A stretch of 64,000 bases of DNA, taken from Eukaryota sp. GEM-RC1 (lineage: Eukaryota). Each line of letters begins with the position of its first letter. Within the stretch, counting starts at the first letter, position 1. The stretch covers positions 496,001 to 560,000 of the forward strand of contig JAUFOQ010000006.1 of the NCBI GenBank assembly GCA_040285855.1, written 5' to 3'. Below are positions 6,609 to 60,335 of this stretch, in pieces. The notes beneath the pieces were generated by a model. That model made no database searches. It had not been told where the DNA came from and worked only from the letters and a program-made list of their open reading frames with translations. Made by a program: the position numbers and the translations under genes.

Positions 6609-6886
6609 GTTTGATCCCCAAAACATCGATGTCATCGTTTGAGTACTATATGTATTTAATTTTAGTGGTACTGTACTTCTGTTTTATTGGTTCTTTTACT
6701 AGAAACGTATTTATTGACCACAACAACAACAACACACGTTTTATTGGTCACCTTTAAGGTACCTCAATTACAGTATGTTACATCTAAAGTGGTCCAGTAC
6801 AGTAGTTCTGCATTGCGTCTTCTAAGAAACTACTGTACTACAAATAGCAGCAGTTTAACAAAAACGCGATTATTCTCTTTAACATC

Positions 6887-8716
6887 ATGGATTGTATCAT
6901 CTGTTTGGAACCATTCAATCTGTCTTCACGGCTTCCTCTGCTTATCTGTAGCGAAGGTCATACAGCCTGCGCTCAGTGCGCGTCCTCGTTGACAATATGC
7001 CCTCTTTGTCGAAGTCCTTGTTTAGCAGACAAAAAGCCGAACTTCGCTCTGCAAGATCTGATCAAGGCATCTCGTGACGGTGATCTATGTCCTCAAATTC
7101 CCTCGGATCAGATCCTTCTGGGAGAAAAAATCGCTGAAGGAGGATTTGCTATCCTGTATGCTGCTAAATGGATCGATATGCCTGTTGCTGTCAAGATGGT
7201 CTCTCTTACAGAAAAGGAAGGATCCGACTGCAATTGGAAATGAATCTTCTCTTCAATTTACAACATCCGTCCATTCTCCGCGTTTTTGGTCTCTCTTTCT
7301 TTGATGATACCATCGGCATTGTTATGGAAAAGGCGTCGTCTTCCCTCCCCCTCCCCAAGTTCTCTCTCCCCATTAACCTTGAGATACGCTAAGGAGTTGT
7401 GCTTAGCTGTTAAGTTCCTCCACCTAAAGTCCGTAGTTCATGGTGATTTGAAACCACTGAACATTCTTCTTGTTGATAACCAAATCAGAGTTGCAGATTT
7501 TGGGACTTCAAGAAACCTTGCCGCCACAAGCAGAGTAACCAGATCCAATGCTATGACTCCTAAGTATGCTGCCCCTGAGCAGTTCGATGCACCCCCTGGT
7601 CCTTGTAGTGATATTTACTCACTTGGATTGGTTTTGTATGAAGTTTTGACTGGAAAGGAAGCTTTTGATGGGTATCCAATGGTACAGTTGTATGGAGCTA
7701 AAGTGCAAGGAAAACCACTAGCTTTTAAATCATCAACTCCAAAGTCTTTGAAAGTCGTAATTTCAAACTGCTTGCATCCAGAACCTGCATTACGGCCTAA
7801 AATCAATGAAATAATTGACATTTTAAATAATCTTGATGTTGCCCAAGGCTCTGACAATTTAGCCTCAAGTAATCCTCCAACTAGTGAAATTGCAGAATAC
7901 AAGCGTCAAGTTGCAGAATTGTGTCTGCAAAATGAACAGTTGCAATCTGAAATCAATCATCTCAAGTCAGAATTCCTTAAATTGAATATTGCTAAGCCGA
8001 AGCAGAAGAAGTTAAAACAAAATGATGGAATCAATTTAAAAAATGTGGTAGATTTTAATCTTTTAACATCTCAGGTTAAAAAGGTTTTGCTTGGAATTGA
8101 ACAAAATTTAATTACAACAATAGATCTAGATAACTTTGGTAATGATGATCATATTGGTGATGATGGTGCAATTGCATTGGCTACGTTGTTGAGACAGAAC
8201 TATTCAGTTACTGGGATTGATCTTGGATGTAATTCTATTACATCTCGAGGTGTAATTGCTCTAGCAGAATCATTGAAAGTGAATTCTTCAATTACTGAAA
8301 TTAATCTTGGTTATAACTCTATTACAGCCGATGGAGCATTTGCTCTAGCAAAAATGTTGAAAGTGAATTCTACGATAACTAAAGTAAATCTAGAGAAAAA
8401 CTCTATTGGACCTGAAGGGGCAATTGCTTTGGCCGAAGCCTTGAAAGTTAATTGTTCTCTTCTTTGGATCAATCTGTGGGATAACTCAATTGGGAATCAA
8501 GGTGCTATTGCCTTGGCTACAGCTTTGAAAATGAACTGTACTCTGACTGAGGTACATCTATGGGATAACTGTATTGGAACTGAAGGTGCTATTGCGTTAA
8601 CTGAAGCTTTAAAGGTTAACTCTAAAGTTGCAGTGATTGATTTAGAGTTTAACACCATTGAGTTGGATATTCAAAAATACTCAAAGAAAATCTCACATGG
8701 CCGTATTAGGTTTTGA
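6887..8716 (+). CDS. RING finger - protein kinase - coiled coil - RNI-like LRR protein (~609 aa after correcting two indels)
   Basis: CIICLE..C.EGHTACAQC..CPLCR; VAVK, HGDLKPLN, DFG, APE; 28-aa LRRs NSIG.EGAIALAEALKVN; indels near 7215 and 7350 are absent from the second copy. Confidence 0.9.
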
Positions 8717-10290: not shown

Positions 10291-12118
10291 TCAAAACCTA
10301 ATACGGCCATGTGAGATTTTCTTTGAGTATTTTTGAATATCCAACTCAATGGTGTTAAACTCTAAATCAATCACTGCAACTTTAGAGTTAACCTTTAAAG
10401 CTTCAGTTAACGCAATAGCACCTTCAGTTCCAATACAGTTATCCCATAGATGTACCTCAGTCAGAGTACAGTTCATTTTCAAAGCTGTAGCCAAGGCAAT
10501 AGCACCTTGATCCCCAATTGAGTTATCCCACAGATTAATCCAGAGAAGAGAACAATTAACTTTCAAGGCTTCGGCCAAAGCAATTGCCCCTTCAGGTCCA
10601 ATAGAGTTTTTCTCTAGATTAACTTTAGTTATCGTAGAATTCACTTTCAACATTTTTGCTAGAGCAAATGCTCCATCGGCTGTAATAGAGTTATAACCAA
10701 GATTAATTTCAGTAATTGAAGAATTCACTTTCAATGATTCTGCTAGAGCAATTACACCTCGAGATGTAATAGAATTACATCCAAGATCAATCACAGTAAT
10801 TGAATAGTTCTGTCTCAACAACGTAGCCAATGCAATTGCACCATCATCACCAATATGATCATCATTACCAAAGTTATCTAGATCTACTGTTGTAATTAAA
10901 TTTTGTTCAATTCCAAGCAAAACCTTTTTAACCTGAGATGTTAAGAGATTAAAATCTACCACATTTTTTAAATTGATTCCATCATTTTGTTTTAACTTCT
11001 TCTGCTTCGGCTTAGCAATATTCAATTTAAGGAATTCTGACTTGAGATGATTGATTTCAGATTGCAACTGTTCATTTTGCAGACACAATTCTGCAACTTG
11101 ACGCTTGTATTCTGCAATTTCACTAGTTGGAGGATTACTTGAGGCTAAATTGTCAGAGCCTTGGGCAACATCAAGATTATTTAAAATGTCAATTATTTCA
11201 TTGATTTTAGGCCGTAATGCAGGTTCTGGATGCAAGCAGTTTGAAATTACGACTTTCAAAGACTTTGGAGTTGATGATTTAAAAGCTAGTGGTTTTCCTT
11301 GCACTTTAGCTCCACACAACTGTACCATTGGATACCCATCAAAAGCTTCCTTTCCAGTCAAAACTTCATACAAAACCAATCCAAGTGAGTAAATATCACT
11401 ACAAGGACCAGGGGTGCATCGAACTGCTCAGGGGCAGCATACTTAGGAGTCATAGCATTGGATCTGGTTACTCTGCTTGTGGCGGCAAGGTTTCTTGAAG
11501 TCCCAAAATCTGCAACTCTGATTTGGTTATCAACAAGAAGAATGTTCAGTGGTTTCAAATCACCATGAACTACGGACTTTAGGTGGAGGAACTTAACAGC
11601 TAAGCACAACTCCTTAGCGTATCTCAAGGTTAATGGGGAGAGAGAACTTGGGGAGGGGAGGGAAGACGACGCCTTTTCCATAACAATGCCGATGGTATCA
11701 TCAAAGAAAGAGAGACCAAAAACGCGGAGAATGGACGGATGTTGTAAATTGAAGAGAAGATTCATTTCCAATTGCAGTCGAACCCTTCCTTTTTCTGTAA
11801 GAGAGACCATCTTGACAGCAACAGGCATGTCGATCCATTTAGCAGCATATACGATAGCAAATCCTCCTTCAGCGATTTTTTCTCCCAGAAGGATCTGATC
11901 CGAGGGAATTTGAGGACATAGATCACCGTCACGAGATGCCTTGATCAGATCTTGCAGAGCGAAGTTCGGCTTTTGTCTGCTAAACAAGGACTTCGACAAA
12001 GAGGGCATATTGTCAACGAGGACGCGCACTGAGCGCAGGCGGTATGACCTTCGCTACAGATAAGCAGAGGAAGCCGTGAAGACAGGTTGAATGGTTCCAA
12101 ACAGATGATACAATCCAT
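10291..12118 (-). CDS. Second, inverted copy of the RING-kinase-LRR gene
   Basis: Near-identical to 6887-8716; its frameshifts (near 11415 and in the 5' region) are at different positions from copy 1. Confidence 0.9.
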
Positions 12119-12658
12119 GATGTTAAAGAGAATAATCGCGTTTTTGTTAAACTGCTGCTATTTGTAGTACAGTAGTTTCTTAGAAGACGCAATGCAGAAC
12201 TACTGTACTGGACCACTTTAGATGTAACATACTGTAATTGAGGTACCTTAAAGGTGACCAATAAAACGTGTGTTGTTGTTGTTGTTGTGGTCAATAAATA
12301 CGTTTCTAGTAAAAGAACCAATAAAACAGAAGTACCACTAAAATCAAATACTTATAGTACTCAAAAGATGACATCGATGTTTTGGGGATCAAACACTCCA
12401 ATTGGTAGTAAGTACAGTACATTTGTACTAGTAGTTGAAAGGATTATTTTATACGTTCGAATATTTTCAAAAACAAAAACAACGTAGGCCTACTTTTCAA
12501 TACTCTTGTAAGAACAACACACACTGAACATTTGGGCAAATAGATTGATGACAAATTGCTATAGCATTGAGTACCTAAAGAAAGTTCCAACAAGAAGTGC
12601 AATTTATCTACAAGATATGTAATCGGAAATTTCGTGGCAATTTTCTCTTAAAAAAACA

Positions 12659-14289
12659 TCATCTAAGTGGAGCAAACAAGCTGCGTATGAAGTTTCTGTA
12701 TCCAACAACTTGCACGTTACTATTAGCGGATCGAAACTGGTTCCTCAACTTTTCAATTCGAATTTTAGCAGTATTGGATTTATCATGCTGATCTTCAACT
12801 TCAACATGCAGAATTCCGTCTGAATCGATAGTCATGGATACCAGAGCTTTAGCTTCTTTGGCCGGCATTCTTGGAAGATTACTGATTCGGAATGATCCAA
12901 GAAGTGTGTTTAATGAGACAATGCTTGCATCACCCTGGTAGACATCAATACTTAGAACAGTCTGATTGTCCTCCGTCGTTAAGTAAGTTCCACTCTTATT
13001 GTTTGGCAACGGAGATTGGCTTGGAATAAGAACACTCATAGTGTTTACTTCAGCAAAGCGGGATTGAGACTTTACTTTAATGCCCAAGTTATGGGGAGTA
13101 ACTTCGTGCAGGATGTGGTGATAGTAGCTAGCAGCCCCCGCTGCAACACTTTCATCCGGATTTAGAGTCTTTCGCAACTTTCCTGGAAACTTTCGCTCTA
13201 AGTATTCTTGAACGATAAGAAGTCGAGACGAACCACCAACGAGTTGAACAAAATCAATGTCAGAAGTTTGAAGCTTCGTTAACTGAAGAACTTCATCAAT
13301 TACTGAGAGACATCTGGCAACATATGGTTCGCAAATGGCATTCAAACGGGACCTTGTAAGAGAATACTCAAGATCATATACTTTAGCTCCATCAACTACA
13401 TACGATTCAACTTCAATATCAGCCTTTTTTTGGGTTGTAAGAATTTTCTTTGCAGTTTCAGCAGCAATTCGGAGTTGTGCTAGCTTTTTCTTCGAGGGGG
13501 GAATAACATGTATGGTCAGCCTTCCAGTTCTTTTTTAACGTTGTCTACTATTGCTTGATCGATATTAGATCCACCAAGGTCAGTATTACCGTGAGTTCCT
13601 ATCACAGTCACATCATCTGCTCCGATTTTAACAATAGAAACGTCAAAAGTTCCACCTCCAAAGTCGAAAACAAGAACTTTCTTTCCTACAGTGTTCGGAT
13701 CTTCTTCCTTGAGAGAGAGTGCCGCAGCAGTAGGTTCATTGATTAGCGTAACTTCATGAAATCCTGCAAGTTGAGCTGCTCGTTTGGTGGCCTGGCGTTG
13801 ATCGTCATTGAAGTAGGCTGGAACAGTGATGACAGATTTAGTTACAGGAACTCCAAGAACTGATGTAGCATTGTTTTTGATGTGAGTTAGGATTTTGGCA
13901 CCGATTTCTTCTGGTTTGAACTTAGTTTGGTTTCTGTAGTTCACAACAAAAGCAGGATCATCATTCCCTCCATCAACGATGTTGAAGTCATAAGTTGAAA
14001 GAGCGTTTTGCACCACTTGATCTGTAAACCTTCTTCCAATGAAACGCTTTGCATCGAATACAACGTCCTCGGGATACTTTCCTCTTTTGTTATGAGCATT
14101 TAAGCCAACGTCAAAGTCTCTGCCTTTAAACCAAACCGCTGACGGAACAGTTTTAGTTCCAGAATTGTAATCGGTCAAAACTTCGGTGAGGAAAGGTCCG
14201 AGACGTCCATCAGGATTACGTTTTTGACGACGAATTGCAGCACAAGAGTTAGTAGTTCCCAAGTCGATTCCAAGAACAAAGTCAGACAT
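12659..14289 (-). CDS. Hsp70-family protein lacking helical lid and EEVD, copy 1
   Basis: VLGIDLGTTNSC, TVPAYFND.QRQATK.A, INEPTAAA, VFDFGGGTFDVS, LVGGSSR, NPDESVAAGAA; one indel in the A-run at ~13535. Confidence 0.9.
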
Positions 14290-14327
14290 GAGGAAGAATT
14301 TTAATCCATTTTTCATTTGCTCTCCCA

Positions 14328-14505
14328 ATGTTATATGTTGTTATCGATCTCGGATCCTTTACGATCACAGTTGCCGTACAGAAAGATTTAAAGCGAGATT
14401 GTTTGAGTGACTGCTCTCTCTGAAATGTTATTCTTCACGACTATGACCGATACGTTATCGACGAAGGTTTATTCAAAATAAAACAATATGCACGAAACTG
14501 TTTTG
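14328..14505 (+). pseudogene. Truncated 5' copy of the divergent Hsp70-like gene
   Basis: Matches the reverse complement of ~16580-16754; CGA>TGA stop at ~14421. Confidence 0.8.
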
Positions 14506-15200: not shown

Positions 15201-16754
15201 TTACTTTTTACTGGAAACATATTGAAAAGGGATAGTTTTCCAACGAATATGAAGTTCACACTGCGGTGTCTTATGATGAATAAAAGGAAGATCATTCAGC
15301 AATTTGATAGATCCTACAGCATGATACATCTCGGATGTATGAAACGATAACGCTAGACCATCCTCGACTACAAACTGTTGAGATCCAGCCCACGGAACAA
15401 ACCTGAACACACATTTTTTAGGACATGGAACAGAAGAAAATTCAAATTTACGACGACCATCAGGTGAAAAAACTGAGCATTCCAAAGTTAAATCGTTATT
15501 ACGCTTGGATAACAATGGAAACGTAACAATATCAACTGTTACTTCCAACTGAAATTGGTCAGCAAGAGATTGGTGAATCGATACCTCATCTAATTGCTGA
15601 ATATCTTGCTTCTCCTTTTGAAGTGATCCACTGGACTCCTTTTGAAGTGATGAACTTATAACATCCAGAGCTCCAAGTGCTACATCAGTTTTGGGATCCA
15701 ACGGTGTCTGTATAGATACATTAAACACAAGAGATGCAGCAGTTCTAACAGCCTCCAAACTAGCAATACCACCTACAGGAATAAGACGTTTGATGCGACG
15801 AGAACGATCCAACTTCGACTGAAATTCATACAGCTTTGACTGTAAAGCGTGGCAGAAGTCATGTAAAACAGTATTAGGGATTTCAAACTCAAAGTCAGAT
15901 AAATGTCCCACCAAATCATCCACAGTAACAGTGAATGGAACCTGACGTTTAGCTTTAGAACAAGCATTTAACAACTTCATATTAGAACGATGATTCATTT
16001 TCTCTCTTATATCAGGAGGGATTTGGGACAAACAATACTCAAACATCATTCTATCTAAATCTTCCGCTCCAAACCACCATTCTTGGGATTCGAGGTTAGC
16101 CCCTGTTTTGCTATCAAAGATTACCATTTTAGTGAGTAAGTGGCCAATATCAATTATACCAAAATTGTAAGATTTAGAAGATGGACGAACTTTGAAAAAG
16201 TATGCAGCAATGAGAGCATCGTCAACTGAAATGACTCGTTGTGACAACGGCATGCCACAGTTAGAAAAGGCTGTGCGCAACAGATCAACATGATTATTAT
16301 CTTGAAGTGATTTTGGTAAAACGATGGACACATCAAAATCGCCAGTCTCCAAATTCATCTCCAACTTCTGTTTCAGATGGGATATCAAAGGCATCAAGAG
16401 ATCCAGTTGCTTGACTTGGTCGCTTGACTCAGGATCTTCGGTCTTGGTGTGGACAGAGAAAACTAGATCACCATCCTCTTTGCGTTGAAAATTATTGCAC
16501 TGAGAAGAGCTTGAAGGGAGGGGTAACGAGGAGCTCCAAGGGAGGGAGGAAGAAGATAACAGATGAGTAACAGACAAGAAACAGTTTCGTGCATACTTTT
16601 CCATTTTGAATAAGCCTTCGTCGATAACGTATCGGTCATAGTCGTGAAGAATAACATTTCGGAGAGAGCAGTCACTCAAACAATCTCGCTTTAAATCTTT
16701 CTGTACGGCAACAGTGATCGTGAAGGATCCGAGATCGATAACAACTGTGAACAT
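15201..16754 (-). CDS. Highly divergent Hsp70/actin-fold ATPase-like protein (517 aa)
   Basis: VVIDLGS, GIIDIGH, FGAEDLDRMM, CSKAKR, PVGGIAS and DPKTDVALGA align with Hsp70 NBD motifs; C-terminus unrelated. Confidence 0.75.
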   Translation of the reverse strand: MFTVVIDLGSFTITVAVQKDLKRDCLSDCSLRNVILHDYDRYVIDEGLFKMEKYARNCFLSVTHLLSSSSLPWSSSLPLPSSSSQCNNFQRKEDGDLVFSVHTKTEDPESSDQVKQLDLLMPLISHLKQKLEMNLETGDFDVSIVLPKSLQDNNHVDLLRTAFSNCGMPLSQRVISVDDALIAAYFFKVRPSSKSYNFGIIDIGHLLTKMVIFDSKTGANLESQEWWFGAEDLDRMMFEYCLSQIPPDIREKMNHRSNMKLLNACSKAKRQVPFTVTVDDLVGHLSDFEFEIPNTVLHDFCHALQSKLYEFQSKLDRSRRIKRLIPVGGIASLEAVRTAASLVFNVSIQTPLDPKTDVALGALDVISSSLQKESSGSLQKEKQDIQQLDEVSIHQSLADQFQLEVTVDIVTFPLLSKRNNDLTLECSVFSPDGRRKFEFSSVPCPKKCVFRFVPWAGSQQFVVEDGLALSFHTSEMYHAVGSIKLLNDLPFIHHKTPQCELHIRWKTIPFQYVSSKK

Positions 16755-16792
16755 TGAGAGAGCAAATGAAAAATGGATTAAAATTCTTCCTC

Positions 16793-18422
16793 ATGTCTGA
16801 CTTTGTTCTTGGAATCGACTTGGGAACTACTAACTCTTGTGCTGCAATTCGCCGTCAGAAACGTAATCCTGATGGACGTTTCGGACCTTTCCTCACCGAA
16901 GTTTTGACCGATTACAATTCTGGAGCTAAAACTGTTCCGTCAGCGGTTTGGTTCAAAGGCAGAGACTTTGACGTTGGCTTAAATGCTCATAACAAAAGAG
17001 GAAAGTATCCCGAGGACGTTATATTCGATGCAAAGCGTTTCATTGGAAGAAGATTTACAGATCAAGTGGTGCAAAACGCTCTTTCTACTTATGACTTCAA
17101 CATCGTTGATGGAGGGAATGATGATCCTGCTTTTGTTGTGAACTACAGAAACCACACTAAGTTCAAGCCAGAAGAAATCGGTGCCAAAATCCTAACTCAC
17201 ATCAAAAACAATGCTACATCAGTTCTTGGAGTTCCCGTAACTAAATCTGTCATCACTGTTCCAGCTTACTTCAATGACGATCAACGCCAGGCAACCAAAC
17301 GAGCAGCTCAACTTGCAGGATTTCATGAAATTACGCTAATCAATGAACCTACTGCTGCGGCACTCTCTCTCAAGGAAGAAGATCCCAACACTGTAGGAAA
17401 GAAAGTTCTTGTTTTCGACTTTGGAGGTGGAACTTTTGATGTTTCTATTGTTAAAATAGGAGCAGATGATGTGACTGTGATAGGAACTCACGGTAATACT
17501 GACCTTGGTGGATCTCATATCGATCAAGCAATAGTAGACAACGTTAAAAAAAAACTGGAATGCTGACCAATCATGTTGTTCCCCATCGAAGAAAAAGCTA
17601 GCACAACTCCGAATTGCTGCTGAAACTGCAAAGAAAATTCTTACAACCCAAAAAACGGCTGATATTGAAGTTGAATCGTATGTAGTTGATGGAGCTAAAG
17701 TATATGATCTTGAGTATTCTCTTTCAAGGTCCCGTTTGAATGCCATTTGCGAACCATATGTTGCCAGATGTCTCTCAGTAATTGATGAAGTTCTTAAGTT
17801 GACGAAGCTTCAAACTTCTGACATTGATTTTGTTCAACTCGTTGGTGGTTCTTCTCGACTGCTTATCGTTCAAGAATACTTAGAGCGAAAGTTTCCAGGA
17901 AAGTTGCGAAAGACTCTAAATCCGGATGAAAGTGTTGCAGCGGGGGCTGCTAGCTACTATCACCACATCCTCCACGAAGTTACTCCTCATAACCTGGGCA
18001 TTGAGATAAGGTCTCGATCCCGCTTTGCTGAAGTAAATACTATGAGTGTTCTTATTCCAAGCCAATCTCCGTTACCAAACAATAAGAGTGGAACTTATTA
18101 TACTTCTGAGGACAATCAGACTGTTCTAAGTATTGATGTCTACCAGGGTGATGCAAGCATTGTCTCATTAAACACACTTCTTGGATCATTCCGAATCAGC
18201 AATCTTCCAAGAATGCCGGCCAGAGAAGCTAGAATTCTGGTGTCAATGACTATCGATTCAGACGGAATTCTGCATGTTGAGGTTGAAGATCAGCATGATA
18301 AATCCAATACTGCTAAAATTCGAATTGAAAAGTTGAGGAACCAGTTTCGATCTGCTAATAGTAACGTACAAGTTGTTGGATACAATCAAGTTAACAGTCA
18401 AAACTCATCACATGATGATTAA
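16793..18422 (+). CDS. Hsp70-family protein lacking helical lid and EEVD, copy 2
   Basis: Same motifs as copy 1; homopolymer indels at ~17550 and ~17583; ends VGYNQVNSQNSSHDD. Confidence 0.9.
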
Positions 18423-18904
18423 GCTTAGCTCTTTTCTTCATCTTGTAAATATCATCAATTCTTTTAAACTGGAAACTCTGATTTAACCAAAATAAATGGT
18501 TTTGTCAAATACAATCCTTTTTTATACTGTAGCGAAAAAGAATGCTTCAGTCCCTGTTCAGCTGTTACTGATTTAAACGAAGCATCCTATATTTCTGAAC
18601 GCATTTTGCAACTGCAGAGTTGTGCATTAAGTATAGCTCCGTTGTTAATATTGATGAAGATCTTGATTGTATGATTAAATTAAAGGCATTTAAGTACAGT
18701 TGTATCTAATGAATTCTAATGAAGCTTTATCTATAATCGTACCATATTTAATTTTGCATCGTTATTCCACACAGGAAACGGAGAGACGTTTCAAACAATA
18801 GTGTCATCTACTACGTACACTCCAGGAAACATTTAGTCTCACTGCAGATTCTGTGTTCGAAGACACGCGTGGACACGTTTGGACACGAACACGCAGACTT
18901 GTAG

Positions 18905-19055
18905 TGTTGAGATGGAATCACGATGTTGTTGTAATGGATCAGCCAATATCATTGTTTTCACAGTATCTCGCCGGAAAATCGTTATCCGTCGGGTTCGGAA
19001 TCCATTGTATGTGTTTCAATTATTCGAGAAAGCGATTTCAACTCGTACTGTTTAG
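18905..19055 (+). pseudogene. 3' fragment of the PH-like gene family
   Basis: Aligns with 1723-1879; starts a direct duplication running to ~20930. Confidence 0.75.
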
Positions 19056-19488
19056 TCGAAAATAATAATGCATCCTTAAACCATGTAGGACAAACTGGGT
19101 TGTTTAAGATCGCTACAATGTTCACTTATTTGAAAACTGGTTGAAAACCGTGAATTTTCTTTTAAGACTTTCTTTCCAGGTTTTACAGTAAATTGAACAT
19201 GGGGTCAATTTCATTGCATTTTTAGAAACAATTATTGTTAAAATCGACAGCATTCTTTATTTGTAACTGTTGAGTAAAAGACGTATTTATTGTGTATTCA
19301 CTAAGTTTTTGATGATGTAAGTCCACTAAATTCGTTGGATAACAGGGTTGTCATGCGCTATACGTGTTTTGATGTCAGAATTTTTCGAGCGAGATGTCAT
19401 TGTTTTCGAAAATCAAATTTCGTTGACAAAATACACTGAAACAAGAACATCAAAAATAATATATTTACATTTTTACAATTTTAATGTA

Positions 19489-20373
19489 CAGTAAACTCTC
19501 TCTAATTGCAACCCCTGTAATTGAAAACTCTCTGAAATTGCAACAAAAACCCATGCCACCGAGTAAAACAATACCAAATTGAAAATTGCAACAATTGCAA
19601 CAGCTTTTGAGACCTAATTGAAACATTGAAGTCAACATTACACTGTATTCTGGTTGTCGCATCTATAGCTAGCTGCCATATATTGATGTTAGTGTGAAGA
19701 AAGAGGAAGACGTTGTTGTGTTTCATAAATCCTACAGTAATCTTCTGGTTTTTCCCATCATCAACTTCAATGTCCCGTACACAGTACTGAACATCAACCA
19801 AAAGTCAAATACAAATGCATGCTCGTCAATATTTTGAAGATGAAGAAAATACAGAAACTGTAACTGCAGAACCTTTCCTCAAAAAAAAGAACTGAATCAT
19901 TGTTTGAGAATTTTCTCCAATCGTGTTGAAATACATTAGTTTAATGACTTCACTGCTCTAAATCAAGTGATGATAGATCTTCCAGTAGTGCTGGGGGAAA
20001 AGAGGGAGAAAAGATTGGTTCATTTTTTGTCACCCTTACGAAATATCAAAGAAACACTTACTACTAGTATGTACCATTGTGTAAAGAGTACTGTCGATAG
20101 TAAGTAAAAGTATTTTTGAAAAGCGGGATGATTAATTTGAGCCATGATAATAACATTTGTTTAAGTCCAAGCATTCATGGTAGTTTTATTGTGGATCAGA
20201 CTTGTTAATTTGCTCTTGCAGACTAATTAATAACATATTTGATGTTCTGGAATAAATATGGATGTTGTATTTAGTTTAGAGTAGCTTTATAGGAACTCTC
20301 TGTAATTGAAAACTCTCTGAAATTGAAACGAAACTCCATTCACCAAGTCGTTTCAATTAGAGAGAGTTTACTG
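19489..20373. mobile_element. Tc1/mariner (pogo-like) MITE
   Basis: Perfect 20-bp TIR CAGTAAACTCTCTCTAATTG; TA on both sides; absent from the paralogous site ~2360-2400. Confidence 0.92.
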
Positions 20374-21578
20374 TAGTTTAAATTTCAACTATCATTCATT
20401 GTCAAAATGTATTAACTGATAAATGAATCTAGATACATGTGCTCAAAGCAATCCTACAGTTGTATAATATTTAGTTAAAAGAGCTCATTACCATGTACTG
20501 TAGTTCTATTTCAAATTTTGGTAACAATGACCGAGCCATTTCAAAATTATTCAATGATTTTGACCGTTGGAGACTTCTAATAGACAGTTTGTTATTGGCT
20601 ATTGCGGTATAAATCGTATTTTCCCTCAATAGAAGCGTTTCCAAAGAGTTAAATCTATTCTAAGTTGACTAGAGACAATTCGCGAGTCGTTGGGCCAATT
20701 GCGGCTGTATTCAGTCGCTAACAGTCAGCAAATGTAAGAAACGACATTGATGAACTCGTAAAACCAGTCTTAGTTGAGTATTTTGTACTGATTCAGACTC
20801 TTATTTAGTACGAATGAATCAATTGTTTCAAATATATCAGTAATTCCTGGCAAATGCAGAAGTAATTAACATACAAATGTTTTCAAATAAATTTGTATAT
20901 ACTTCCTGATATAGTACCGTATTAAAAATGGCTGAAACGCAAATCACTGAATAATGTCAAAATAGTGACATGACTTTAGTTGATGCAATTATATTTATCG
21001 TCGGTTGAGCTTTTTTTATTAGGTCAGCCAACAATAGCGACACACAAAATGCGTTCTCAAAAGGACACTCTGCCCTTGCAAACTACTGAAACATGAAGGA
21101 TAGCAAAAAAATAGAAATACGGTAAATATATCTAGAACTAAGCATACCTAAAAAACTTATAAGAGTTCTTCATCAAATAGAAGATCAAATCAATTAATGT
21201 TCTACTACATGTTGAACATAATTCAGTGACAACCAGAGCCACAAAGGCACTTGCTAAAAGAATCTTACCCGTAGGGGATGTTCTAAACATAGTGAAAGGT
21301 TCTCTTGAAGAAAGAGTCTCAATTTTGTTGAATGATATTCTTGATCATTTACCCAATTTACTAGAACGACAGTCTCCTTCGATCCAACGTTTCCTTCAAT
21401 AAGTCGTGTGCTCTTAAATGACGCATTATCAAGGGTGGACTGTATAATGCAAATAATCATTCGATACAATACAAGAATTACCCGACACACGAGACTCGGT
21501 GTATTGTTTTTGCAAGGATTGGAACTCTGTGATGAAATTAATTAAAATTTCAACCCTCTTCTAAACCAACTTCAAGGA

Positions 21579-22020
21579 ATGAATTACGATAATCAAAACC
21601 ATCACTCTGAAGCAGTGTACAGTAGTATCCAGATTCCTGATGACAGTCTTTCCTTTGACGAGTCAATAATGGCCCCTTCTTCTAAGAACGAGAGCATTCT
21701 CTGGGAAGGACGTCCCAATGTCTCTATATTGGATTGGGTTTGTTCAGCTCTTGTTCTTACCGTAGCCATTGAACACCTATCGCTACATGTTAACAAACAA
21801 AATGTTTGTCGCCAAAACGGGATGGCTCACGCGATCTTACTCTGTTTTCCCCATTTCTCACATTGCTGGCGTTGAGATGGAAGTAGGTTGTTGCTGTAGT
21901 GGGTCAGCTAATATCATTGTTTTCACTGTATCTCGCCGAAAAATCGTTATTTATAAGGTTCGGAATCCGTTGCACGTTTTTAAATTATTCGAGAAAGCGA
22001 TCTCAACTCGTACTGTTTAG
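21579..22020 (+). CDS. Small PH-like (bPH_2-like) protein with one TM segment
   Basis: ESILWEGRP, hydrophobic stretch, YRY.LTNK, KTGWLTR, I..VRNP; frameshift near 21770. Confidence 0.55.
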
Positions 22021-22331
22021 TAATTCTCATTGTCTCAATTTTAAAGCAAACTTACAGTCATGGCAAAATAGAAGTGTTATTCAAAACAGAGTTCTTGATA
22101 TGAATACACACGTGTGTAACTTAACACATTCTAAAGTGGAATATCTATTGTCCGGAATTAATTTATACAAATTTCAAAATCATGTGCGAAATGACAGTGT
22201 CGTTTTCCGCACAGAGTGATAGTACTATAGCAAATTAACACACTTCAATGCAGTATGCAGATAGATGTAAATATATATTATAACACGATGATAATCATAC
22301 ATCTTCAACAACGAGTTTATTTACAAAAGCC

Positions 22332-29110: not shown

Positions 29111-29593
29111 TTATTATTATATGTATTTTTGTACCCTCCATCAATAAACTGATTTATTCTATTAAGCAATTTTAAAATTTGTTTGAATATTTGTGTTCAG
29201 AATGTGGTAAGAATTGTAACAGATTGTACTACCTGGACAGAAGAGTTTTTTGCCTTTCCAATTTTTAAGTACAGTATATGTATAGATATGTTGATTCCAT
29301 TTTGTTCAAGTTGTTTGGAGGCTACTACTTTTCAGAATTGGGCAGTTCGTTTGATAATTTGTTGTAATAGTGTGTATTAATTTTTTGTTGTTTTGTTGTG
29401 TGTTTTTCTCCGTACATAATTCCGTTTTTCAATCAAATGTTGCAAGTAGAGCTATTTATTTAATTGTATTAAAAGAAACATTCGTTAACATTTGACAACA
29501 AACAGACACTGTGTCCATTGGTCAATAATGGCGGTCAACAATAAGTTTTTTTTTGCAGTTTCCAAATTCGGACTCTTCATCACTTCATTCCAA

Positions 29594-36238: not shown

Positions 36239-37105
36239 TGACCTCTGTTAGACGTTTTCTTGATTTCATTTCATCATTTAGTTTATATTGGGTGACTTTA
36301 AGGATATCTCTGAGTAGTCAAGGGTTTGAGTCTGTTCTCCATCAATCAAAAGTTATTGATTGAATGATCAAGATTGAGACTATGTTCTCTTGTTCATTCT
36401 TATTAGAGTGCTGAATTAAATCTGTTAATCTATCCATTAGTGCGAGCATTGGTGTTCGAGGTGTATATTCATTTTGATTGGGGTTATTTTGTTCCACTGT
36501 TTGTTAAACAATCTTTATTTAACATCCATACTTTCTAGGCTTGGGACACAGGAAAGGACAAGAATGGCAAAACCCGGTTCGTTTTGTTCTTCTGTATTGT
36601 CTTTATTTTAAATTGTCTAATAAAAAAAGCGGATTTATGTGCGGAGAAAAACACACAACAAGAAAACAAATATTAATAGAGACTATTAAAACAAATTATC
36701 AAACGAACTACCCAATTCCGAAAGGTAGTTACCACCAAACAATTTGGACAAAATGGAATCAACAAATCTATACATAGACCTAAAAATCGAAACAATATTA
36801 TCTTTTCAGAAAATTGTTGCGTCTATTCTGAAGACTTATACAGTAGTTCTATTGTTTAGGTATTTTGATTCGACTTTGAACCGTCTTTTTGCAGTGAGTC
36901 ATGAACTTGAGATGATGTAGAGGTATTGGTATCTTTGATGATGATCTTGATTAATATGATTAAATTAATGGGGAACTGTACGATTCAGAGTTTGAACTCA
37001 ATCTTTGGCATACGCATTGATAAACAGTAATGTATTGACCACTACACTAGTTTGTCCACATCACAGTTAGGCAGTTACCAATTTACTTATCAAATTCTTT
37101 CTCTC

Positions 37106-45507: not shown

Positions 45508-46936
45508 GAAAGGTTTGAGTGCTTCAAAATGTTACAAAGTCAAGTCCTGGGGTTTTCATTTGTTTGGTGTTCAAAAATTTTTCACCACCAACAGAATACT
45601 AGTATCATATGCCTCTAGCTTTTCCCTTATTAATAAACGGCTTTGATGTTCAGAAACTTTCTTGTCATGCATCCAAATCTGCAACTAGATTCTTCAACAC
45701 CCTTTATTACCATAAATAGCTACTTAATGCATGCCATAAACAAAAACACACCTCATATGTGGACAAGATCTACGACAATTGAAGACAAATTCATCAGAAG
45801 ATGTTCGTGTTCGGGCCGTTTCTGCCTTTTTGGTCATGTTCAGCAACACAAAAGCAAGATGCGGAACAGCATTTGGTCAGTCAATCCATTCTTAGCCGGT
45901 GGTTTTCTTCAACCTTCGAAGAAACAGTTGTGACGGCCACACAAGTCAGTGGAATATTGTCTGATGACGAAATTCAACAGCTTAGACACGTTGTGGAAGG
46001 AGATCCACATGTTTTGTGAGGCTTCGAAAAACATTTCCATCCCAAGTCTCTCTAGACTTCTTACAACTCTTTGTTACTCTCATAGAAAGTGTCAGTTTAA
46101 CATAGTCAGTGGTGATCAGGACCAGTAGTATTTTTAAACCATGTATTGTGACCTTATTTATGTAAATATGTTATTCTTTCCGTGCTTTATTACCACTAGA
46201 ACCCTACAGGTGGGAGATTGTTTAGTAACAATTGATTATAAACACATTTCTGGTAAATGATTGGAGGAGAACAACAAAGAGGTTCATGTGTGTAAGAAGG
46301 AGCAGAAACATGTAACGTGTGGATAATGAAGCAGAAGATATTGGAACAATGATGCTTGGTGTCTGTGAAGAAAATTCTTCAGCGGCAACAACATAACCAG
46401 AGAAATGCTGAACAAGAAGGACAATGCCAAGGTTTTCAAGATGTTGATATCAAGGTGTTTTACATTAAGAAAGCAAACATGTTATTGAGAAGACATGTTC
46501 AAGTGAAGACACTATTGACTTGAGAAGATCTACAACTTGATTAAGAAGTGCCTGGTAGGCATTAATAGTAGTTTCAGTCATCAGCAAGTGGCTTATTTAT
46601 GACAAATGCTTCAAGGATGTCCTTCAAAGGGCACAAAGTAATAAAGACACTCAAGGTACAACAATGTACAACAAGAAGAAGTGGGGGTGTAAGAAGAAGT
46701 TGGTACTACTGTAGTATTAGTATGAAGGAGAAAAAAATGAAATTGAACAATAAATCAAAACGAAACGGAATCCAATGGAGGGGAAGGTGATGACAATCAC
46801 ATTACCGACATTGACTATTCTGGTTTCATGGTTCCTCACAATGACTCTGAAGATACACGTGGTTCCTTGGCTTCACACCCAACTCTTGAAGGTGTGGACC
46901 CTTCTTTGACTTGACCTACACGGGAAAAGTGCACTA

Positions 46937-49900
46937 TTGCAAATGACTGCACTTTCCCAGTATGCTCCTCAAAACTACCTTGTGTCAATTGCTCTCTCCT
47001 TAATTGACTTAGAGACAGAGTCTATTGGTTCTTCGTTCTACTTTTCTTGGGACTGTTTTATTCCACCATCTCGTGACTCCCATTGCTACCACTTTGACAC
47101 TGAAGCAACAATGATACAGTTTTTCATTGATTTTTTAGTAGCCACGAAACCTCAATTATTGATTTTTTACAATCATGAATTTGAAATGTTTCCGTACTTG
47201 CTTGAACGATGTCAGCTTCTGGATTTGAAATCCAATTTTGAAATTTCAGATTACATACCTGACATTCCATTGTGGTTCCGTCGATGGTGTTCCCCAACAA
47301 AATTTGGTCCGTTTGTTGCCCTCAATCTTCAAAACGTGGTCAGGGATACATACAAAATTAAAGGAGGGAATGACCTCGAAAATGTCATCGAAAAGCTGCT
47401 AATGCCAAATTTTGTTATGGAGTTCTTGCTTTCTGAAGAAGAATTGAAAAACTTCTCAACAGAATTTAAAAGAGTTTTATCTTTAGACAAAATTCCTGAA
47501 AAAATGATGACCAAGTTTCTACTGTGTGCTAAAGACTCTAAACTGTCAGTATTGTTGTCATCTGCTGGTGGACAGACTGTATTGAAAAACCACATGTTTC
47601 TACAGGCCACTTATCTGATTCAATTATTTAAATTTTATAACACGACTGAGATTCAAAAACTGGTAGGAAGGCCTCCCATGAAAGTGGTGAAAATGGGGTT
47701 ACAAAAGGTGTTGAAAGATCAATCCCATATAGAGGTTATTGAGGATTGTGTGATCAGGACACATCAGTTAGTTGTTCGTGGTACTGGGTTCCTTAAAAGC
47801 TTCCTTTTACACGAATTTGAAGAAGCTTCAGATCCAATTTGTTCTATGAATGATGAGACAAATTGTGTTGTTCCAGAATCGATGGAATCTTATGACATTG
47901 ATGCTGTTCCCTACTACGAACTCCGTTCAAGACAACGAAATATTGTAAATTTAAAAAACTATCTAGGTCATCATGAATTACGTCAATTGCTGCGACGAAT
48001 GGGAATCAAAAAATCTCAGAAATTATTCAGAGATAACCCATGTTCTGATCTTGAGTTTATCTATCGAGAATCTGGTGATTTTCTGTCCAATCATTTTGTC
48101 CAAGATGCTGAGTTCATGTTTGTTCAATACTATTTTGACCATTACATTCCAATTTTGAACAATCTCAGTACTACTATGGGTGAAGAGGTTGTAACAATTC
48201 CTTCTTTGCAGTACCTTCCAAGAATTCTTGATTATGCTGCGAAACAAATCAAAACAAATTATGAAAACAACATGTCTCTTCATTTTCACGAACATGTTTT
48301 TCGATTGTACAATCTTGTTCTGGACAAAAAAAGAAGGCTGAAACTGCTGGGTAAATCTGCTCGTTTAAAATTGTTGAAGAAAATGAATTCTGTTCGAGAC
48401 ATGATTGTTAAAGGGGATTTTGAGAACATACCTTTTAAAGATACTGATGTCTTTCCAAATCCAACTTCAGAAGCTACACTTTACTTTCTAGCTTATCTTA
48501 AATTTAATCTTTTCCCTATCCTGACTTCCGACAAAAATCTTTACTATTGTCAGAAAGCAGATCCACTGACATACGTGAGCCATGCAATTTATTTGGCGAA
48601 AATCACCCAAAGTTTCTTTTTCAATGATGATGGTATTCCAGTTTCTGCTGCTAATCCTTTTCCATCCAGTAGGTCTTTGATTCCTAAAAGTATAAGACTG
48701 GACACAAACTGGATTAATGAGCGCTTTGTTCAATTAAAAGGATCTGCTGATCAGATGAGGAAAACAGTTTTTGCATCCGTAGTAACAGATGAAGTGTTAC
48801 AAGATAGTACTTCGTATGTTGTGAAGTGCTCATCTATCGTTACTGACGGAATATCATGTAGTGTACTCATGATAAGAAAAGACCTTGTAGACTTAGAAAC
48901 AGGTAATGAAAAAACAGGCTACTCTGCAGTTCAAAAATTAACTGAAGTAGAAAGTTATATTGATTGTCTATCAAAAAAGACATCGAAAAATTAAATTTAA
49001 AAAACCGAAGAATCATCGCAGTTGATCCTAATCAACATGATTTGATGTACTGTGTTTCTGAGAAAACAGTTGAAGAAAAAAATTTAGAAAAATTTATTGA
49101 GAACGGAGAAAATCCACTCAGAAAAAGAAAAACTTCAGAAGTAAGAAGTAAAAAAAAGAGGTGGTATCAAAAAAAGAAAAAAACAGTTAAAAAAATGGAG
49201 TACTTCAGATTTTCCCATGGTCAAGCTCAAGAAGAAAGATCAATGGAGTGTTTTTAGATACACTGCAGGGGAACGAGCCTTCGATCGCCGAGGCAAACAA
49301 TTCGAAAAAACAGAAAAGAAGAAAATTTTAGAATTCCAACCTCCAGGAATTGCTGCAAATGGAAAAGAAGTTCATGACTGGTTTTCCTCAGAAACTGCAG
49401 AAGGAGAACGCAAGTCATGCTTTAACTCAAAATTCACTGAGTATCTGGTCAAAAAGAGTTGTATAATGCTCTGATGTCTCCTCTGTATTCTCAACCTTGG
49501 TTCCGAAAGAAACGGTTTCTGCTCTACGGAAATAACCAGCGTTCTGAGAAGAACATGGCGGAGAGACTCAAATTGACCTTTGGTAGCCCATCCGAGACAG
49601 TGATTGCCTTTGGTGATTGGAGTGGCAAATCAACTGGAAGAAGAGGAAAGGCTCCAACTATTAAAGGGCTTGCCATGCGAACAATCCTGCGAAAACATGG
49701 TTTCCAAGTGTTCTTAACAGATGAATACAGAACAAGTAAGTGCTGCAGTGCCTGTGCTTCCAAGGGCATTGAAGGAGTGTGTTCGAATGTAGAAGAGGTC
49801 GACGTGAAATACAAACCGAAAGTATTACGAAACTTGGGGTATCAGAAAGCTAAATTGCGGAACAAAATCAGAAGGCACAATCGCCGCGATTCAGTCAACC

Positions 49901-50428
49901 GTAGAAGCTTTCCAGAAGAGTGGCAGCTATTGAAAGGGAATCTTCTTGAAGATGAAGAAGTAGAAAAAAAAGACTCCGTGGGGGTTAGTAAAGTGCAATC
50001 ATTGTGGGATGTTCTGGAACAGGGATTTAAACTCTGGTATCAACATTTACAGGATCGCTGAAGCAGCTATACGTGGTGAGAGCAGACCAATAATTCTTGA
50101 TAGATCGAAATATGAAAAAGATCATGATGAGGATTCAAGTTCTGGTCAAGCCAGAAAGCGAAGAAGCTCCCAAAACAAATGTGGGTTCTGTGGTGAAATC
50201 GGCCATACCAAACCAAAATGTCCCAAAAACACAGAACCAACGATAAGAAAGTGTGGCACTTGTCGAGAACCAGGACACACCAAAAAAAATTGTCCAAACA
50301 AGAAGAATGTTCCAGAGACGGACGCTGGAAGAAAGAGAACAATGAAGTCTGATGAAAGAAGAGGTCAGACATCCACAAGAATTAGCCCGCCTAACAAACG
50401 GTGTGGCAGCGCTGAAGCGTATCTGTGA
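46937..50428 (+). CDS. Fanzor1 RNA-guided endonuclease with N-terminal PolB exonuclease-like domain and two C-terminal CCHC knuckles (~1160 aa after correcting four A-run indels)
   Basis: RuvC-I IIAVDPN (D 49024); FRYT; FRKKRF..Y.NNQRSE; IAFGDWS; TDEYRTSKCCSAC (E 49723); GLVKCNHCGMFWNRDLNSGINI (D 50024); N-lobe motifs ILDY..IKTNYENN, PFP...IPKSIRLDT, TDGISCSVL. Confidence 0.92.
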
Positions 50429-50493
50429 AGTAAGTAGTGGAGAATCATTTGATCGAGGTGCAAATCTGGTCTTATCTAGATCTAGATCTAGAT
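50361..50493 (+). ncRNA. Candidate Fanzor omegaRNA (scaffold plus putative guide)
   Basis: Expected position overlapping the ORF 3' end; 9-bp stem 50361-50369/50465-50473 (3 G-U) enclosing CCACA/TGTGG, TTAG/CTAA and CGC-TGAA-GCG stems; by-eye fold only. Confidence 0.35.
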
Positions 50494-50554
50494 GCATTCA
50501 AAATGAAAACCACAGTCCCAACTTTTGTCCAACCAATTCAAACCATCTTCACTT

Positions 50555-59621: not shown

Positions 59622-60335
59622 TTGTTTGATCTATTACATTTATAATAAAGATGTCATTTTAGTCATTTATGCCAAAAAAATTATATTTATTCTCTTCTTT
59701 CTGTTGACATGACCAGTAATCGGATACCTGATTGACATTGATGAATGAAAATCAACTGACGTTACCAGGAATGGTCCAGCATAACTACCATGTAGCTTAA
59801 ATGTCTTTGTCTTCTGCAGTACGATATGACATATCTTGAACAGGTTACTTTTGTTGTTTTCACGAGGGGGCTTACTTGTTTGAGGAGTTTCTGCCTGTTA
59901 TCGCTTATTGGTTAGTCTTTTGAGTTATAGAGCGATATATTTTACGAGTTGAATCTCAGAGCGACTTTGTCCAAATGCATTTAGTATGTTTCCTGGAATT
60001 GTGTAACCAAAGAAACAAAATCCCAAAATATCAAACACTAAACCACATCATCCTAACAGAACTACACTGTAACATTGCTAGTAGTATCAATTATATCCAT
60101 ATTATTTTGTCTATGATGTTCCTTGATATCTTCTCCTTTTTCCTCACGCATAATAAATAAACACTATTATAACAAATTATCAAACTAACTACCTAATTCC
60201 GAAAAGTAGCTGCCTCCAAACAACTTGGACAAAATGGAATCATCGTGTCTTTACATCAGGGCTGTGAAAAAATATTAATATTTAAATAACGGCAATAAAT
60301 TATTCAGTATGTCTATTTTTAAGAACACAGGATAT

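Follow-up and report, generated by a model that had tools for sequence, protein, structure and literature searches.

A Fanzor1 gene extended in frame by C-terminal CCHC zinc knuckles, conserved in one protist lineage

A 64 kb stretch of the genome of Eukaryota sp. GEM-RC1 (hereafter the window) contains a Fanzor1 gene which continues in frame past its RuvC-III motif into a tail with two CCHC zinc knuckles. The fusion is real, is conserved in one protist lineage and is absent from the distant Fanzor1 proteins that we sampled. We propose that the tail is a flexible, basic, non-specific nucleic-acid-binding arm acting most likely on DNA next to the target, and we put the probability of this reading at about one half.

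The pieces of the gene upstream of the tail, all on the plus strand, are Fanzor1. The REC/WED lobe (47678-48994, also covered by tblastn) matches PpFz1, SpuFz1 and GtFz1 in fold (E 7e-8 to 4e-6), and all seven matches at E <= 0.001 to a model of 46943-48991 are Fz1 structures, with no Fz2, TnpB or Cas12 among them. RuvC-I follows at 49018-49032 as AVDPN, with the catalytic D, and conforms to the DP(G/N) pattern. The form given in the available part of Yoon et al. is DPG and the window gene has DPN; among the best 120 of 209 distant homologues, 88 have DPN and 23 DPG, with none called in nine. The next piece (49150-49971) comprises the bridge region, RuvC-II (TDEYRTS, 49717-49737) and the first half of the C4 zinc finger (49741-49755), and finds PpFz1 (E 2.9e-8) and SpuFz1 (E 3.2e-7) as best PDB matches. 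The second half of the finger (CNHC, 49994-50005) and RuvC-III (NRDLN, 50018-50032) are found at 49973-50104, which extends to RPIILDR. Read across one frame break, the series TDEYRTSKCCSAC ... CNHC ... NRD fits [TS][TS]xx-C4-RD, the arrangement with the RuvC-II glutamate shifted beside the C4 zinc finger that PMC3627910 and Yoon et al., in the portions available, describe for Fanzor1. The catalytic triad is complete, with D in AVDPN, E in TDEY and D in NRD, and so is the C4 finger.

The best sequence and fold matches overall are SpuFz1 (PDB 8gkh, 9ceu-9cez), PpFz1 (9cf0, 9cf1) and GtFz1 (9cer). They share with the window gene the split RuvC, with D, E beside the C4 finger and RD, and the REC/WED lobe; unlike it, they have neither a C-terminal knuckle nor an exonuclease domain. 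The window gene measures about 1,160 codons from its exonuclease-like start, whereas 600-700 is usual for Fanzor1 according to the accessible text of PMC11423790. In the TNB zinc-finger region of this clade (window 49800-49960; residues 472-520 of the relative P0164), the two Cys pairs are separated by a helical insert some 60 residues long, which exceeds that of most homologues.

The gene is spread over five frames, and its four breaks all lie upstream of RuvC-III. They were placed at A-runs, one at an A6 run at 48973 and the others near 49150, 49451 and 49964. Positions no more than 6 nt from a run of at least five make up only 16% of the gene, which puts the chance of four out of four at 0.0007, a generous figure, as the break positions were set by eye within wider intervals. 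The window also has conserved host genes that shift frame, several of them at short runs (a B9-domain gene, a methyltransferase, TRM1, HSP70 copies and a kinase). Because these nearby genes are broken likewise, the four breaks are probably assembly errors; the window copy may also be decayed. The first-pass annotation of this DNA was silent on the frame breaks, as it was on knuckles elsewhere in published Fanzor1 proteins.

The ORF that bears the tail (49964-50428, plus strand) includes CNHC, NRDLN and RPIILDRS (50084-50107) and then runs for a further 107 residues without a stop; no frame break separates RuvC-III from the knuckles. Counted from the arginine of RD, the tail has 135 residues. 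It starts with a linker (50105-50179) in which an acidic patch precedes the basic run RKRRSS (50153-50170). Two CX2CX3GHX4C motifs come next, KCGFCGEIGHTKPKC at 50180-50221 and KCGTCREPGHTKKNC at 50252-50293, and a basic segment of 43 residues (20-32 in relatives) containing RKRTMK (50330-50347) fills 50294-50428 up to the stop codon. The run RKRRSS is NLS-like by inspection only. The tail holds 26 K+R against 13 D+E (18-28 against 6-14 in relatives). The initial description, of two CCHC knuckles appended in frame after RuvC-III in about 110 amino acids together with basic NLS-like runs, is thus confirmed.

Both motifs have the CX2CX4HX4C spacing of the CCHC zinc knuckle (PF00098 clan) and are the sole instances of it in the six frames of the window, where about 0.005 occurrences of CX2CX3GHX4C are expected by composition. 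Their scores stay below the Pfam cut-offs: 19.2 bits where 22 are needed for zf-CCHC_6 (E 0.0011), and 16.1 bits against a gathering score of 20.8 for zf-CCHC (E 0.012). The two knuckles, repeated with a period of 72 nt, are identical in 36 of 54 bases and 11 of 18 residues and resemble each other more than either resembles the knuckle of any relative, although the fixed ligand positions inflate these values. Knuckle 2, at an offset of 48, aligns with the single knuckle of the relatives (offset 31-45). Since the knuckles are most alike each other and the second occupies the position known from the relatives, it is likely that the pair arose by local duplication, knuckle 1 probably being the extra copy.

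To find relatives, 1.84 billion representative sequences were queried with the tail ORF by phmmer, and the best 150 of 316 matches were examined. The RuvC-III motif is present in 40 of these 150, and four of the 40 (P0004, P0006, P0007 and P0015) have one in-frame knuckle after it; each of the four is an NCBI protein from Eukaryota sp. GEM-RC1. P0006 represents a cluster of 26 members, 15 of which were listed, and P0004 a cluster of three. The same 105-residue tail is kept in 15 of the 18 listed records from these two clusters; two of the remaining three stop before RuvC-III and one diverges ahead of the knuckle. Three records of 644 residues contain D, E, D and the knuckle within one ORF, and the knuckle-bearing records sit on contigs of nine different sizes. 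Because the in-frame fusion recurs in NCBI records of relatives, it is independent of errors in the window and is not a read error there. A stop codon ahead of the knuckles, which the first-pass annotation had named as fatal to its claim, was found neither in the window nor in these fused relatives.

Near relatives devoid of the knuckle also exist, namely three TZLM3-RCL clusters and one GEM-RC1 cluster, the latter with an acidic tail. For this reason the tail is, judging from these sequences, lineage-restricted and dispensable at the level of the clade. The window gene and the knuckle-bearing relatives share 16-20 of 28 residues in the RuvC-III stretch. Across four lineages (window gene, P0164, P0007 and P0015), 16-23 of 28 residues are common in the RuvC-III core and 7-9 of 16 in the knuckle, always including C, C, G, H and C. 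The linkers of the relatives share just 3-5 of 24 residues with that of the window gene, and linker length varies from 24 to 45 residues across the four lineages. Within the multi-copy family, 16 of 105 tail columns vary, so that five invariant ligand columns are not significant alone. A quick tree of 46 rows, which took every fifth (24) of 120 distant proteins and in which five rows fill less than half of the columns, needs three changes for the knuckle; 39 of 500 shuffles gave a value as low, and the tree is uninformative on origin, a single gain being compatible with it.

For the distant Fanzor1 proteins, a profile search scored the best 7,992 candidates, and the best 120 of 209 longer proteins were taken, a sample that is probably skewed. 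The RD motif was missed in two of the 120, both of which end shortly past a variant motif. None of the remaining 118 has a knuckle anywhere, and their tails after RD measure 28-78 residues (median 45) against the 135 of the window gene, so the C terminus is indeed longer than in Fanzor1 homologues, as had been suspected; SPu-1, for example, ends about 30 residues past RD. An alignment scan brought up ten distant metagenome loci, none of them followed by a knuckle within the next 1 kb. Window pieces used in locus scans matched nothing in viral or metagenome contigs, and word-index searches with single window pieces yielded 0 of 93 and 1 of 304 candidates. The tail is therefore not common in the Fanzors sampled, and the view of it as a rare appended module stands: relatives carry the fusion, while distant Fanzor1 proteins do not.

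In the full-text literature, which takes in few subscription papers, no Fanzor with a zinc knuckle or CCHC motif was found. Nor was a knuckle after RuvC-III found in the accessible text of 10.1101/2023.08.09.552727, PMC10530073, PMC10432273, PMC10691335 and PMC11423790, or in the available portion of the protein file of PMC3627910 (Additional file 3). Knuckle-type motifs do occur elsewhere in the proteins of that file (Bao and Jurka 2013), whose accompanying main text uses neither 'CCHC' nor 'knuckle'. By our own reading, HAgv-1, HAmv-1, PUgv-1, SFav-1, HVav-1 and SPu-3 have an N-terminal CX2CX4HX7C, and the Fanzor1 SAl-2 an internal CX2CX4HX4C. These motifs of the insect-virus proteins, SPu-3 and SAl-2 are single, differ in spacing and are N-terminal or placed before RuvC-I, whereas the window pair follows RuvC-III. 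Since published Fanzor1 sequences already bear N-terminal knuckles, the C-terminal knuckle is, as far as sequence comparison goes, a new position of a recurrent Fanzor1 add-on.

A predicted model of P0164, whose seven matches at E <= 0.001 are all Fz1 structures, has a pLDDT of 85-95 in the RuvC-III helix, below 50 at residues 574-606, about 82 in the knuckle block and below 50 at the end. The prediction is thus of an autonomously folded knuckle that terminates a disordered linker. The residue after the first Cys is G in both window knuckles and G or R in the relatives; an aromatic residue occurs there in none of them and in 306 of 655 non-Fanzor knuckles among the matches listed. An aromatic residue at this site, which stacks on guanine, is a feature of RNA-binding knuckles of the retroviral NC and LIN28 type. 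In every Fanzor knuckle of the clade, K or R occurs at least once in the interval from His to the final Cys. The TAF1 knuckle requires two basic residues there to bind DNA (PMC5854669, available in part). That knuckle (zf-CCHC_6, PF15288) is the best Pfam match, below cut-off, of knuckle 2 and of P0015, and it resembles the Fanzor tail in having basic residues in that interval; it sits, however, in a transcription factor, and the Fanzor tail, whose DNA binding is putative, is not scored as a zf-CCHC_6 member.

A DNA-binding arm is favoured by the ligands C, C, G, H and C, invariant in four lineages despite the drifting linker, and by the basic tails with K/R before the last Cys and no aromatic residue after the first. 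Five of nine non-ligand knuckle positions differ between near-identical copies, consistent with retention of a fold that has no specific surface. We infer that DNA ranks before the guide RNA as ligand. The knuckle would have been gained once in the Fanzor clade; selection would have preserved its zinc ligands as the linker diverged, and in the window copy a local duplication would have followed. The arm may raise DNA affinity or dwell time during RNA-guided target search and cutting; its basic runs might also serve nuclear import, and catalysis would not depend on it. Several observations speak against such an arm. All knuckle carriers come from one organism, and none of the TZLM3-RCL relatives has a knuckle; charge does not distinguish binding to DNA from binding to RNA; the window copy has four frame breaks and is perhaps decayed. 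Moreover, the weak PDB look-alikes of the tail are RNA-binding proteins (a CCHC-domain protein at E 4e-4, LIN28A at E 0.005, also TUT7 and Gag NC).

These look-alikes lead to the strongest rival, already raised in the first-pass annotation, in which the knuckles bind or chaperone the omegaRNA and aid the loading or protection of the guide. RNA binding is typical of CCHC knuckles, and the two in the window, 24 residues apart, recall the pairs of close CX2CX4HX4C units in retroviral NC, LIN28A and CNBP-type proteins, which are weak PDB matches; the tail differs from these pairs by lacking the aromatic residue after the first Cys and any Gag or RRM context. In three Fz1 structures the omegaRNA packs on the RuvC/TNB surface (PMC11423790, in its accessible text), and the tail leaves that lobe. 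Candidate omegaRNA hairpins begin just downstream of the knuckles (50340-50429, plus strand), where they overlap the last 30 codons; the first stem has 7 bp, as it has in three Fz1 omegaRNAs (same source, same portion). The candidate is weak. Its fold has a z of -2.78, matched by 2 of 200 shuffles, and is the best of 21 windows scanned; against a background in which 3 of 213 windows reach -3.2 and 18 of 213 reach -2, it lies in this tail of the distribution. Rfam gave no match at 50340-50429. With the aromatic residue behind the first Cys missing throughout the clade, and close relatives with one knuckle or none, the chaperone reading is not favoured over the others, and we consider it about half as probable as the DNA-binding arm.

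Alternatively, the tail might be a segment for nuclear import or protein docking, its knuckle binding a host or element protein instead of nucleic acid. Every carrier has basic runs on both sides of its knuckle, NLS motifs are frequent in Fanzors (PMC10530073), and in PpFz1 the FRI insertion is a cyclophilin-binding segment (PMC11423790), both as stated in the available parts of these papers. Zinc ligands are, however, not needed for an NLS and no result points to a partner, which makes this explanation improbable.

Slightly less probable still is a functionless passenger, a knuckle scrap of a host gene or transposase fused by stop loss and spread with the element. The motif is short, many close relatives lack it, and MULE transposases can end in a knuckle (PMC3441728, seen in part). 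On the other hand, the ligands are kept in four lineages though the linkers differ in length and sequence, and the frame is kept in most of the listed copies. As to a source, the first-pass annotation had proposed capture from a transposase. The precedent holds: in the Mutator-like transposase VdMULE8, according to the available part of the same paper, a short knuckle ends a mobile-element enzyme as in the window Fanzor, a likeness of motif class only, with no transposase identified beside the Fanzor gene. The capture itself gained no such support, since none of 30 non-Fanzor knuckle matches scanned has a DNA-transposase domain at E <= 1e-4; these 30 matches and ten clusters are generic CCHC proteins, with one Gag and no transposase. 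The 14-residue motif is too short for a donor to be named.

Finally, we give hardly any credence to an assembly indel joining RuvC-III to an unrelated knuckle frame: frame breaks are many in the window and A5 runs lie at 50115 and 50225, but the same fusion is found in independent NCBI records, and the available part of the Skoliomonas genome paper (10.1101/2023.05.03.539051) describes Illumina-corrected long-read assemblies of strains GEMRC and RCL, with which we equate GEM-RC1 and TZLM3-RCL from their labels.

The other end of the window gene is also unusual. In ORF 46943-48994, the N-terminal 245 residues (46943-47677, plus strand), in frame with the REC lobe, resemble a PolB-type 3'-5' exonuclease (PF03104, E 1.1e-4, just under the cut-off). 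The ORF is collinear with P0042 from exonuclease through REC/WED (26% identity over 727 columns), and its exonuclease-like stretch also with P0172 and P0174. These three TZLM3-RCL proteins (1222-1479 residues) pass PF03104 at E of about 1e-12, match DNA polymerase delta chains and have intact ExoI, ExoII and ExoIII motifs; among some 290 proteins compared, they alone show the ExoII pattern. Being NCBI proteins, they are predicted gene models, and the fusion of exonuclease and Fanzor is supported by the same domain order in the window. Of the DEDDy motifs, the ExoI D-x-E was found neither in the window copy nor as a remnant upstream of the domain, and the aspartates of ExoII and of the ExoIII Y-x3-D are unaligned; because these acidic residues do not align, the domain is probably dead in the window copy. 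The predicted model of this part is of low confidence and gave no nuclease match. Upstream of the exonuclease, P0042 (residue 104) and P0172 (residue 113) contain DVEANPGP, which we take to be a 2A-like motif, and P0174 has DVEANLGP; no similar motif was found in the window. Among the publications listed, none concerned a natural Fanzor-exonuclease fusion, as judged by title. Tentatively, and with the odds against it, an undescribed clade of oversized Fanzor1 proteins may exist in soda-lake-type metamonads, in which a C-terminal knuckle arm, as a portable booster of activity, would grip DNA and an N-terminal PolB-type 3'-5' exonuclease would trim the cut ends.

The Fanzor locus lies between two divergent host genes, encoding a B9-domain protein and TCP1; together with the short intron of TCP1, they show a compact-genome flagellated eukaryote. 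The window contains no long inverted repeat around the Fanzor gene and no second Fanzor copy, whereas the family of the relative is multi-copy. A 15-nt inverted pair (45547-45561 and 50501-50515) was considered as terminal repeats and rejected as a promoter-like motif of the flanking genes: AATGAAAAC, at 45560 (minus strand) and 50502 (plus strand), is found 53 nt upstream of both flanking start codons and looks like a promoter element. Upstream of the Fanzor gene, 1.4 kb (45575-46940) with short frames only and one chance-level Rfam match may represent an element gene that has decayed. Three units of the self-complementary repeat TCTAGA (50476-50493), located after the Fanzor stop and before the TCP1 promoter, could mark the right end of the element.

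Elsewhere in the window, kinase-LRR genes (6609-8716 and 10291-12394, 98.5% identical) and HSP70 genes (12697-14503 and 16579-18384, 96%) form inverted duplications, the HSP70 copies shifting frame at almost identical positions. Dispersed repeats that are 79-87% identical (1433-2950 and 18904-22021; 29274-29429, 36625-36779 and 60152-60256) are probably remnants of other mobile elements and are unrelated to the Fanzor locus by blastn.

Fanzors are under engineering as genome editors, and the C-terminal knuckle is a candidate part to graft onto them. The natural knuckle tail and its knuckle-less sister families offer a ready test of how such arms affect the search for targets and their cutting. 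Of greater importance may be the exonuclease fused to Fanzors of this clade, which would influence how the cut is repaired; in Cas12 editors, fusion to exonucleases is being engineered (10.1101/2025.09.16.676532, available in part). Taken with the N-terminal knuckles in other Fanzor1 branches, the tail suggests that such arms have been gained repeatedly.
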